Source: a virus. Taken from it: a stretch of 64,000 bases of DNA. Below are positions 2,327 to 5,718 of this stretch, piece by piece (the first letter of the stretch is position 1; every line of letters begins with the position of its first letter). Below the pieces are notes generated by a model, which searched no databases, had not been told where the DNA came from, and was given only the letters and a program-made list of their open reading frames with translations. The position numbers and the translations under genes were made by a program. The stretch spans positions 3,649 to 67,648 of the IMG/VR virus record IMGVR_UViG_3300047333_000104; one strand, written 5' to 3'.

Positions 2327-2405
2327 AATCTTTGACTCCTCGTTAACTCTCAACACTGTAACACCGTAGCGTTACACTAGCAAGCGTAAATCAATCCATC
2401 GTCGC
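2322..2405. repeat. 84-bp direct repeat, copy 2
   Basis: 82/84 identical to 588..671; contains the same promoter (2355-2383). Confidence 0.95.
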
Positions 2406-2461
2406 GGGTGTCCGAAGAGGACCAAAGCGCGCGGCGTTGAAGATGCTCATTTGTGCCCAGG

Positions 2462-3136
2462 TCAGCATGACACCAGTAGATCCGTGAGCTTGTCCGCCAT
2501 GCGATCATGGCATTCCGCTTTGGCGTCGGCGGCGTCGGCGGCGTAGGTGGCGGCGTAGGTGGCGTAAGCGGCGTAGGCGGCGGCGGCGGCGGCGGCGTCG
2601 GCGGCGCGGGTGGCGCGGGTGGCGCGGGTGGCGCGGGTGGCGCGGGTGGCGCGGGTGGCGCGGGTGGCGCGGGTGGCGGCGCTCTTACGCGCGGAAACCC
2701 ATTCATCGCGGGCGGGCTTGTCTCCGGCGACCCAGCGGCGATAGAGTCCTCCGACTTCAGAGAGCGCAGAATTCGCTCCAGCCGATTTTGTGCGTTGCGG
2801 CATTTCTTCGGTTAGCAGCCATAAGGCGAAGCGGGGCCACACCATGGCGAGGTCAGCACCTGGGCGGATGGCGCCCATGAACCGCGCGGGCCACTCCATG
2901 GCGGCGGCATTCGGAAGCCCCTCAAACAGGCGGTCTTCCAGATGGGCCAGCACGCGCGGAATACCGAAGCGGCTTTCGTACTCGGCATGGTTTCCGCTAT
3001 GCAGAGTGCAGCCGACGGCGCACCCCTTGCCCTCTTGCCAGTAACGGTCTTTGACGAGTTGGTCCGCAGCACGATGCGCGTCGAGCTGGGCGAGGATATC
3101 GGCCTTGATCTGCGGGTCGGAATGATATGCAAGCAT
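2462..3136 (-). CDS. Hypothetical phage protein with Ala-rich repeat C-terminus
   Basis: 224 aa; GGAG RBS; KGCAVGCTLH...GIP motif; (ATR)8 and AAY repeats. Confidence 0.85.
   Translation of the reverse strand: MLAYHSDPQIKADILAQLDAHRAADQLVKDRYWQEGKGCAVGCTLHSGNHAEYESRFGIPRVLAHLEDRLFEGLPNAAAMEWPARFMGAIRPGADLAMVWPRFALWLLTEEMPQRTKSAGANSALSEVGGLYRRWVAGDKPARDEWVSARKSAATRATRATRATRATRATRATRATRAADAAAAAAAYAAYATYAATYAADAADAKAECHDRMADKLTDLLVSC
2604..2675. repeat. Perfect 9-bp x8 tandem repeat (GCGCGGGTG) encoding (Ala-Thr-Arg)8
   Basis: Eight identical units read directly. Confidence 0.95.
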
Positions 3137-3150
3137 GTGATTGTCTCCAT

Positions 3151-3204
3151 AGGCTCATCAGTGTCGGCTTATACCGACAGACGGCGCGGTGCGCCGTTTC
3201 GCCT
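3151..3204 (-). ncRNA. Type II hammerhead self-cleaving ribozyme
   Basis: Minus strand reads AGGC GAAAC GGCGC ACC GCGCC GUC UGUCGG UAUAAG CCGACA CUGAUGA GCCU. Core CUGAUGA, GAAA and GUC triplet are intact. Stems I (6 bp), II (4 bp, open) and III (7 bp) are fully Watson-Crick. Confidence 0.93.
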
Positions 3205-3245
3205 TACGCCCAGCAACGCGTGAAAACGCGGATCATTGAGGATGC

Positions 3246-3539
3246 TTATTCGTCCCTCCAGTACTGCAAGCCGTCATTGCAGGAGTAGCCAATCTTTCCC
3301 GGTAGGTAGACTGGCGTGACGACGACTTGCCCGTTTGACGATATGCCTACCGAAGAGGTAGACGAGCCAGTCATGTGCCCGATTACGCGGCATTCGTGCG
3401 CAGCGGCGAACGCTTCCCACTTGCGGTTTTCTTGTGCGGCGGCGTAGAAGATTAAACCGATAACTGCGACGGTGCCGGCGCTAATACCCCAAATCGGCCA
3501 GTCGTAGCGCAGGTGGTCCCAGAAGCGAGCGAGCATCAT
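3246..3539 (-). CDS. Small membrane protein
   Basis: One TM segment (WPIWGISAGTVAVIGLIFYAAA); paired Cys. Confidence 0.75.
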   Translation of the reverse strand: MMLARFWDHLRYDWPIWGISAGTVAVIGLIFYAAAQENRKWEAFAAAHECRVIGHMTGSSTSSVGISSNGQVVVTPVYLPGKIGYSCNDGLQYWRDE

Positions 3540-3784
3540 GCAATCTCCAATTCAGCGGCTTCCAGCTTAGACCGGCTTTGGCCGATCCAATCACCGCAGA
3601 AGCGCGCGACCACGCCAATGCCTTGCAACGATCCGTTGTTCCACGCGTCCCGCCGCGCCTCCGCGATAGCCTGTTGTTCGTCAAACTGATGGGGCGAGAC
3701 GTGTCCGAAGCCTTCGTCATTTTCCCAAGGGGGCGGAGCGGACTCGTCGACGATGATGACACGGGAAATGGTGACTTTAGTCAT
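3536..3784 (-). CDS. Hypothetical protein (82 aa)
   Basis: TAGGAGTCAACATC-ATG leader; PPPWEN.EGFG.VS motif. Confidence 0.75.
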   Translation of the reverse strand: MTKVTISRVIIVDESAPPPWENDEGFGHVSPHQFDEQQAIAEARRDAWNNGSLQGIGVVARFCGDWIGQSRSKLEAAELEIA

Positions 3785-3806
3785 GATGTTGACTCCTAGT
3801 TAGCGA

Positions 3807-4313
3807 TCAGACAACTGACCAAATCTCAGTCAGGCGGCCCTTGCCGTCCGCGACGTACAGGCTAGCGTTCCCGTGATCGTTGATATGCAGCACTTCGCCT
3901 GAATAGTCCGCCGGAACCTCGCTGGTATCGCTCACGCGCAACCCATCGAAGTCGTCCAGCGCGCCATCCGACAGCCAGAAGCCGAAGTCCGCGCCGTCAC
4001 CTTCCAACGTGCCGAAGTAGCCATAGGGCGGCGCGAAGTACGAGCTGAGGCAGTCAATCATCTCGTCGACCAGCGCGGAACCCGACTCCTCATCCGAGTC
4101 GCTATCGTCATCGTAAGCGTCCAGCCAAGCGTCCGCTTCCGCCAGCACGGCGAGCAACCTAGCGCCCTCTTCGTAATAGGCGTCATTGGGGGGCAGGTTG
4201 GCGTAGTTCGCGGACACAAGGGTGCGCAGTTCGCTCGCGAAGGCGTCCAGCAAGTCGGATGTGCGAAGCGTGCCGGAAGAGACGGAACCGAAGGAAGCGT
4301 ATTTGAAGGGCAT
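3807..4313 (-). CDS. Acidic hypothetical phage protein (paralog of N-terminal part of 10053..10898)
   Basis: GSVSSGTLRT.DLL, APPYGYFG, DFGFW motifs; GGAGTCAC leader. Confidence 0.8.
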   Translation of the reverse strand: MPFKYASFGSVSSGTLRTSDLLDAFASELRTLVSANYANLPPNDAYYEEGARLLAVLAEADAWLDAYDDDSDSDEESGSALVDEMIDCLSSYFAPPYGYFGTLEGDGADFGFWLSDGALDDFDGLRVSDTSEVPADYSGEVLHINDHGNASLYVADGKGRLTEIWSVV

Positions 4314-4406
4314 AATGGTGACTCCCAGTTAGCGTTGAAATGATCCTAGGTAAGAGGCGGGTACCTGTTCCGCCCCTTGGCTAGAGCCATCGCCTGTCCT
4401 CGCCTG

Positions 4407-4733
4407 TCACGGATGCATAAAGAACCCCCTGTCCCCACACGCTTCCATGCCAGCGGTGTTAGACCGTTTCGGATGCTTCGGCAGATAGGTGCAAAGGTAC
4501 TGGCCGAACCGATCCTTGGTGCACTCGTAACCGCCGTTGGCCCAATAGACTGCCTTGCCGGCGTCGATAGCCGCTTTAGCCTCTTCCAGCGTCAGGGCGG
4601 TGCCAAAGTCGCACACTTCGATCTTATGCGAACCGCACTTGGGGCAAGGGAGTGAGCCATCGTTGGGGACAGCCACGGATTGACCAGTAAAGTCACGGCG
4701 GCAAGCTTCGCAACGGGCTACGTAGTGGAACAT
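4407..4733 (-). CDS. Zn-ribbon-containing hypothetical protein
   Basis: CEAC...CPKC; GGAGTCAC leader. Confidence 0.7.
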   Translation of the reverse strand: MFHYVARCEACRRDFTGQSVAVPNDGSLPCPKCGSHKIEVCDFGTALTLEEAKAAIDAGKAVYWANGGYECTKDRFGQYLCTYLPKHPKRSNTAGMEACGDRGFFMHP

Positions 4734-4763
4734 TTGGGTGACTCCTAATTAGCGTTGATCGAC

Positions 4764-5012: not shown

Positions 5013-5039
5013 TTGTTTGACTCCTTGTTCGATTTCAGT

Positions 5040-5069: not shown

Positions 5070-5119
5070 TGGCTATTTCGCACCAGGCGCCGACTATTTT
5101 GTTCATGTTCTATTCCTGT

Positions 5120-5175
5120 CATATCGCCGGGTTATTCGGGCATATCGCCAGGTTATTCGGGCATATCGGTAGGTA
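5120..5175. repeat. 21-bp tandem repeat (about 2.7 copies, CATATCGCCRGGTTATTCGGG)
   Basis: Units at 5120-5140, 5141-5161 and degenerate 5162-; flanked by 9-bp inverted repeat 5101-5109/5184-5192. Confidence 0.85.
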
Positions 5176-5259
5176 TTACATGCAACATGAACCGACTAAC
5201 AATTGCCTGTGATACCAGCAATAGCGTATCGTTCCCGCCATGACGGAAAGGGGTTAATC

Positions 5260-5718
5260 ATGCCAGATGGACAAGGGAAAGCCGTGTCGGGATGGAGAGG
5301 GCCGGAAGGATCTAGACACCCGGGATTTACGCCCGGAACGAGCGGAAACCCTAGTGGGCGGTCGAAACATGATTTGAATCTCGCGAAAATTGCGCGTGAG
5401 CATACGCAAGAGGCAATCGACGTGATTCTTGAGGTCCTGCGGGACCCGGACGCCAAGCACTCCGCCAGGTTGACGGCGGCAGACATGCTTCTCAATCGGG
5501 GCTATGGCCGCGCGCCCGTCACCGTGCAAGTCGGGGATAGCTCCGACCAGCTCGACGCTTTCCGGGAGACGTTGCTAGAGGCGGTACAGCACGCGTCCAG
5601 CGGGTTGTCTAGCGTGACTGTCATCGATCAGGAGCCGGCCGTTGTGATCGTCCAGCCAGCTCCGGCGCCTTCAGCAGCCCCCGGTCTTATCCCGAAAGAC
5701 ATCACTCCCAAGAAATAA
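5260..5718 (+). CDS. Probable terminase small subunit (DUF5681-like)
   Basis: FTPGTSGNPSGRSK motif followed by helical RLTAADMLLNRGYGRAP; RBS GAAAGGGG. Confidence 0.7.
   Translation: MPDGQGKAVSGWRGPEGSRHPGFTPGTSGNPSGRSKHDLNLAKIAREHTQEAIDVILEVLRDPDAKHSARLTAADMLLNRGYGRAPVTVQVGDSSDQLDAFRETLLEAVQHASSGLSSVTVIDQEPAVVIVQPAPAPSAAPGLIPKDITPKK

Follow-up and report, generated by a model that had tools for sequence, protein, structure and literature searches.

The genome examined here is that of an uncultivated phage, represented by a viral contig in IMG/VR (87,337 bp, estimated completeness 93%), and the DNA of this contig is present in moss-metagenome runs. Positions refer to the window, the whole stretch of 64,000 nucleotides that was analyzed. 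Two minus-strand genes, 3246..3539 (97 aa, without a family match) and 2462..3136 (224 aa), are separated by a spacer of 109 nt, most of which is filled by a type II hammerhead ribozyme; 41 nt separate the ribozyme from the stop codon of the upstream gene. The two genes and the ribozyme share one strand, which agrees with the sense-strand location in a co-directional gene block given in an earlier note on this DNA. The leftward block of small genes starts near 5100-5200 and is divergent from the rest of the genome. Between 3246..3539 and 2462..3136, no terminator-like site was found, and the sole promoter-like match between the two genes (3149..3122, 9/12) ends inside the downstream coding sequence.

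The N-terminal 150 aa of the downstream protein belong to a family of more than 1000 unannotated phage-type proteins, for which neither a Pfam domain nor a name was found; they are followed by eight ATR repeats and an Ala/Tyr-rich tail. Homologues in other viral contigs (L005, L008, L009, and L013; about 3430-4760) carry much longer GCTGCT-type triplet-repeat tracts, which give rise to spurious isrG matches in Rfam. In one relative, the homologue is located upstream of HTH, exonuclease, DNA polymerase A, and PD-(D/E)XK genes. This context would fit an early or replication region, and the label "early" for the downstream gene, drawn purely from gene layout and homologue context, is tentative.

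The preferred ribosome-binding context of the phage, GGAGTCA[AC], occurs at 16 sites compared to 3.3 expected (minus strand 598-605, 1849-1856, 2332-2339, 3789-3796, 4318-4325, 4738-4745, 5017-5024, and nine further sites). A longer leader, CAACGCTAAnTnGGAGTCAC, is common to three genes of the leftward operon (4318-4337, 4738-4757, and, with three mismatches, 3789-3808) at a chance expectation of 0.03 sites, and may act in processing, as a promoter, or as a signal for translation. Directly upstream of the first gene of the operon, positions 5111-5170 on the minus strand contain about 2.5 direct repeats of CGATATGCCCGAATAACC, which adjoin a promoter-like stretch and look like operator or iteron sites.

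Read directly from the minus strand, positions 3204..3151 constitute a full type II hammerhead with a tail reaching to 3147. The whole element including this 3' tail (3147..3204) is matched by model positions 1-66 of 66 in RF02276, while a phage hammerhead model and a structural descriptor, both described below, place it at 3140-3204 and 3204-3151, respectively. From 5' to 3', the RNA starts with the 5'-side strand of stem II, AGGC (3201..3204), which ends in C11.1 and pairs with GCCU at 3154-3151. This is followed by GAAA (3197..3200), corresponding to G12, A13, A14, and A15.1 in both the direct reading and the Rfam alignment, and by the stem III hairpin (3181..3197), in which the A-U pair and CGGCGC/GCGCCG make up seven pairs around the loop ACC according to fold and descriptor. 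After C3180, the stem I hairpin (3162..3179) pairs UGUCGG(U) with (G)CCGACA, again with seven pairs in fold and descriptor, and its loop is AUAA or, with the closing pair open, UAUAAG. The core segment C3-A9, CUGAUGA (3155..3161), was likewise assigned by direct reading and Rfam alignment and leads into the 3'-side strand of stem II, GCCU (3151..3154), which starts with G10.1 in the direct reading and the descriptor.

All conserved core nucleotides are consensus, namely C3, U4, G5, A6, U7, G8, A9, G12, A13, A14, the pair A15.1-U16.1, and C17. The core-adjacent pairs are standard, with G10.1-C11.1 at G3154-C3201, U1.1-A2.1 at U3179-A3162, and A15.1-U16.1 at A3197-U3181; such standard pairs are the acceptance rule of Perreault et al. 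(PMC3088659). Stems I, II, and III comprise 7 (including the closing U.G), 4, and 7 bp, and the loops of stems I and III have 4 and 3 nt, respectively. As the 5' and 3' ends both exit via stem II, which is open, while loops close stems I and III, the element is assigned to type II. The complete hammerhead with CUGAUGA, GAAA, and three paired stems that the earlier note had described is borne out by the direct reading as well as by the Rfam model, the descriptor, the shuffled controls, and the phage model.

Hammerhead numbering identifies C3180 as H17 at the cleavage site and places the predicted scissile bond between C17 (3180) and U1.1 (3179). The same bond had been proposed before, and a cut 3' of C3180 is what the numbering predicts. 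The Shine-Dalgarno (SD) sequence of the downstream gene, GGAG at 3145..3148 by direct reading (GGAGACAA, a variation on GGAGTCA[AC], the context usual in this phage), lies two bases past stem II, and the ATG is at 3136. A position just before a ribosome-binding site (RBS), as the earlier note describes it for 2462..3136, is the norm of the class.

Model scores and placement in the class

The Infernal search with a type II model that had been suggested earlier yielded a full-length match to Rfam RF02276 (Hammerhead_II), while its score of 35.6 bits is 1.4 bits below the curated gathering score of 37. The corresponding E-values were 6e-6 locally, 5.2e-7 for the 87-kb genome, and 2e-4 when the 7-kb operon was searched with all families. 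Since 35.6 bits is less than the 37-bit gathering score, which is a curation threshold and not a biological feature, a default-threshold Rfam scan is silent at this locus. When calibrated on five viral records, RF02276 gave clear hammerheads between 30.9 and 68.7 bits, and several members of one tight phage hammerhead cluster scored below 37 bits under this model.

For an independent covariance model (R1), 38 further phage type II hammerheads were used and the present copy was left out. R1 assigned 49.4 bits to the present copy, with an E-value of about 6e-9 in a rough calibration, which is mid-range compared to ten independent positives (38.6-72.5 bits). With R1, no second match was found in the genome and none in 14 loci carrying homologues of the downstream gene. 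At the level of the family, double compensatory changes appear in 11 of the 13 predicted pairs of the R1 seed alignment. Eleven viral contigs have an identical stem I, and most of these are type II hammerheads with differing stem IIIs that are fully compensated.

The descriptor, consisting of the core and stems of at least 4, 3, and 5 pairs, matched the present site alone on both strands of the 64-kb window and had no match in 2000 dinucleotide-preserving shuffles. A chance look-alike, with neither hammerhead ancestry nor hammerhead function, could appeal to the Rfam score under the gathering cut-off but is extremely unlikely: 0 of the 2000 shuffles contained even a loose descriptor match, the Rfam E-value for the genome is 5e-7, the phage model reaches its score independently, and strand, location between genes, and spacing to the RBS each agree with the pattern of the class.

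No other ribozyme reached the threshold in the Rfam scan of the window or the remaining genome. A weak Twister-sister match was recorded at 5457-5573 on the plus strand (22.9 bits, where the gathering score is 34, and E 0.2); it is on the strand opposite to the operon genes and is probably due to chance. A weak match to the HgcC-family RNA lies beyond the window, at contig positions of about 82117-82222 on the minus strand (26.5 bits, where the gathering score is 50, and E 0.016).

Of the 92 reference hammerheads that the descriptor confirmed, 58% are followed within 30 nt by an SD sequence and start codon, compared to 10% of random positions, with start codons counted for ORFs of at least 50 aa. 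The mode of the distance between ribozyme end and start codon in the class is 20-29 nt. The present copy ends 14 nt before the start codon of 2462..3136 and is a compact version of the usual phage layout. Its 3' side is shorter than that of the RF02276 class (PMC3088659), with 14 nt versus the mode of 20-29 nt, and it is because of this compactness that the pseudoknot tail touches the SD sequence. In other respects, the present copy resembles the class closely, as it has the identical catalytic core, a pseudoknot between loop I and the bases after stem II, and an intergenic position on the sense strand of a small phage-gene block, where it ends just before an RBS.

When the viral collection was scanned by pattern, type II hammerheads sharing this stem II and core were detected in at least 119 viral contig stretches and, among the matches listed, many contigs carry 2-6 copies. 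The densest arrays among these listed matches are found in L089, with six copies in 14.6 kb, and in L024 and L036 with five copies each, followed by L022, L033, L073, L091, and L093 with four copies each. Such dense arrays would lend themselves to a class-wide study of gene cassettes delimited by ribozymes. Unlike these members, the present copy is single and has no flanking pair or array. Type II hammerheads in phage operons are common and have already been described, and the present copy is an ordinary further example and no new system.

Probable loop-tail pseudoknot and candidate competing folds

In type II hammerheads, loop I pairs over 4 or more bp with the nucleotides that directly follow stem II (Perreault et al. 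2011, PMC3088659); this pseudoknot is found in most but not all members. The pairing of loop I UAUA with UAUG that the earlier note had pointed out is present at 3173-3170/3151-3148, in the register of the family, so that the tail UAUG (3148..3151) can form a 4-bp pseudoknot according to the in-register test. It consists of three A-U pairs and one G.U, with no G-C pair. The pseudoknot takes U3151 from the fourth pair of stem II as well as G3148, the first base of the SD sequence, and the closing stem I pair U3173.G3168 must open because U3173 is needed.

The in-register test used tail 4-mers starting after the third or the fourth stem II pair. Loop I and tail can form 4 bp in 34-47% of 68 non-redundant members, compared to 11-13% of permuted controls. 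The present copy pairs in the register after three pairs, and the expectation for a random 4-mer of the window is about 2%; given this in-register match, the contact between loop I and the tail is probably real. When any register within 12 nt was allowed, the outcome was uninformative (66% versus 45%), and the in-register test was used instead.

The present pseudoknot is A-U rich and would be much weaker than the G-C rich ones of most members, which makes activity at low Mg2+ uncertain. Cleavage at cellular Mg2+ could be slow because the pseudoknot contains A-U and G.U pairs only and competes with the fourth pair of stem II. One alternative reading builds on this weakness. The element would be a hammerhead by descent that is weak or decaying and arrived with a gene cassette, its poor tertiary contact would render cleavage too slow to have an effect, and its hairpins would act at most as passive elements for RNA stability or spacing. 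Perreault et al. regard the tertiary contact as critical for high-speed activity (PMC3088659), and a pseudoknot of three A-U pairs and one G.U is in line with such decay, as is the lack of a second hammerhead in the genome. However, none of the core positions or core-adjacent pairs has decayed, the stems are long and G-C rich, and the pseudoknot is kept in the correct register. Together with the comparison to a relative given below, these points make a decaying copy unlikely, though it is the alternative that carries the most weight.

In a further reading, the element would be a regulated switch, in which the ribozyme fold competes with other pairings, and cleavage and downstream translation would be coupled or conditional. 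The candidate competitors are an upstream GGGC, which could act as a stem II decoy, and a hairpin in which the core UGAUG pairs with codons 4-5 and the SD sequence with the AUG. Thermodynamic folds favor both of them, at -26.8 kcal/mol for the decoy and -30.2 kcal/mol for the alternative hairpin compared to -26.0 kcal/mol for the ribozyme fold, although such nearest-neighbor energies ignore the tertiary stabilization of a hammerhead core. The one-base overlap of the pseudoknot tail with the SD sequence also suits a switch. However, 88% of synonymous recodings are more structured than the native coding start, and in 33% the core is masked no less well than in the native sequence, which leaves the alternative hairpin within the range of chance. 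As a selected feature masking core, SD sequence, and AUG, this hairpin was ruled out by the synonymous-recoding null. The GGGC decoy pairs over 4-5 bp with an energy about equal to that of stem II and is absent from the relative X3, as far as a 30-nt loose end of X3 shows; it was treated as chance. With both competitors weakened in this way, a regulated switch is very unlikely.

Homologues of the downstream gene and the relative X3

No hammerhead was found before the homologues of the downstream gene at any of the 14 loci examined, which comprise 11 viral loci and three contigs of the closest proteins. The 11 viral loci, together with their whole records, contained just one weak and unrelated match of 20.8 bits, and the three contigs of the closest proteins (64-69% identity) contained no hammerhead. 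The closest homologues either overlap the gene upstream of them or follow it at a distance of 33 nt. This leaves no room for a ribozyme and indicates that the downstream gene does not need one. Since the homologues examined elsewhere are without a ribozyme and the closest ones lack the room for it, the ribozyme is a lineage-specific addition.

Searches for further relatives included a metagenome pattern scan for the ribozyme lineage with stem I left free, which gave no match, and a metagenome scan for the hammerhead core, GGAG, and an M-x-A-Y-H/Q start, which gave six matches, all due to chance. With the upstream gene and the portal as probes, no relative of the phage was found in the viral collection, and blastn of positions 2400-4400 against the phage database gave no match.

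One related sequence was obtained from a freshwater metagenome of a different study. This 282-nt contig, X3, matches 3014..3207 with 16 differences and no gaps before it diverges, and shares the ribozyme, the leader, and the gene start at about 92% identity. Differences less than 31 nt from the aligned ends were not listed in the alignment, which hides three of the 16. In the visible coding part (3044-3136), 12 differences occur in 93 nt, compared to one difference in 41 nt in the visible ribozyme and leader part (3137-3177). The one-sided Fisher test for this contrast gave p = 0.05, with a range of 0.005-0.10 depending on the location of the three hidden differences, and significance is lost if all three are inside the ribozyme (p = 0.10). 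The sole visible change within the ribozyme, G3165 to A, breaks C3176-G3165 to an uncompensated C.A, and for this reason X3 does not support selection on stem I.

These observations bear on the decaying copy from both sides. The C.A mismatch in stem I of X3 and the fact that homologues of the gene manage without a ribozyme speak for decay, while the ribozyme and leader of X3 look more conserved than the neighboring coding sequence, which speaks against it.

The homology to X3 ends within about 3-12 nt of the 5' edge of the ribozyme. As judged from this alignment, the ribozyme, leader, and gene are inherited together in X3, where the sequence preceding them is a different one. Upstream of the ribozyme, the 30-nt loose end of X3 (3204-3237, minus strand), when translated by eye, looks like the last part of a hydrophobic ORF (..MLVALAILAG), whose stop codon UAA would correspond to bases 3206-3204 and touch the first base of the ribozyme. 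Such packing of stop codon, ribozyme, and RBS would resemble the tight packing of other phage hammerheads.

That the homology, covering gene start, leader, and ribozyme, stops near the 5' end of the ribozyme in this one relative also suggests a broader reading, in which the ribozyme and the gene would move as one cassette. The 5' edge of the ribozyme would then be a recombination boundary, the cassette would carry its own message start along to any new location, and in this compact copy the overlap of pseudoknot tail and SD sequence would additionally tie folding to translation initiation. The absence of the ribozyme before all other homologues examined fits as well, and we consider this reading quite unlikely.

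Proposed message separation and comparison with known hammerheads

The explanation we favor, with a probability of roughly 0.7, is that of a genuine and probably active type II hammerhead, which would be transcribed within the leftward small-gene operon, cleave, and thereby separate two messages. The three-way junction would fold once the last ribozyme base, 3151, has been made, about 15 nt before the start codon, aided by the short pseudoknot between loop I and the tail, and the RNA would cut itself after C3180. The stem III hairpin, carrying a 2',3'-cyclic phosphate, would then form the 3' end of the upstream message, while the downstream message would open with a flush and fully paired stem I hairpin bearing a 5'-OH. 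With the short stem II released, stem I would be followed by about 13 unpaired bases, GGAG, eight bases, and the AUG. The likely effect would be an uncoupling of 2462..3136 from the preceding genes in stability and translation, for which no host RNase would be needed. Since the ribozyme is single and has no flanking pair, just one message boundary would be defined.

In bacteria, 5'-OH ends and 5'-terminal hairpins slow 5'-end-dependent decay, and synthetic ribozyme insulators exploit the same principle of a 5'-OH and a 5'-terminal hairpin. A literature search on the stability of 5'-OH mRNA returned nothing directly usable. RiboJ is a synthetic insulator that was engineered from a satellite-RNA hammerhead and an added hairpin. 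The action proposed for the present element is the same as in RiboJ, where a hammerhead removes upstream RNA and leaves a hairpin with a 5'-OH before the RBS, whereas the present element is natural and has type II topology.

The splitting of a polycistron, as put forward in the earlier note, corresponds to the published hypothesis for phage hammerheads (PMC3088659). Hammerheads that flank genes have been described in prophages, and a processing of polycistrons has been proposed (Perreault et al. 2011, PMC3088659). Hammerheads of phages and prophages cleave in vitro and in vivo (PMC3088659). The HHphage of the haloviruses HF1/HF2 is located 13 nt upstream of the start codon of an early-region gene, and the mapped 5' end of the major transcript is within three nucleotides of its cleavage site (PMC3088659). 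While the leader position is alike, HHphage is a structural variant from an archaeal virus, analogous to HHmeta, which needs very high Mg2+ (PMC3088659), and the present element differs from it in its canonical core and ordinary type II topology. In Desulfovibrio vulgaris, cleavage of the type II hammerheads loc 1-3 has been shown both in vivo and in the course of in vitro transcription (cyPhyRNA-seq; PMC8782182). They share with the present copy the type II fold and the vicinity of hypothetical and phage-like genes. In contrast, they are located in the chromosome of a cultivated bacterium and their cleavage is proven, whereas the present one is located on an uncultivated phage contig.

Hammerheads are abundant in phages and their role is still a matter of deduction, and to these the present copy adds one well-formed example. 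Being single, tight against the RBS, and equipped with an unusually weak pseudoknot, it may serve as a simple test case for the class.
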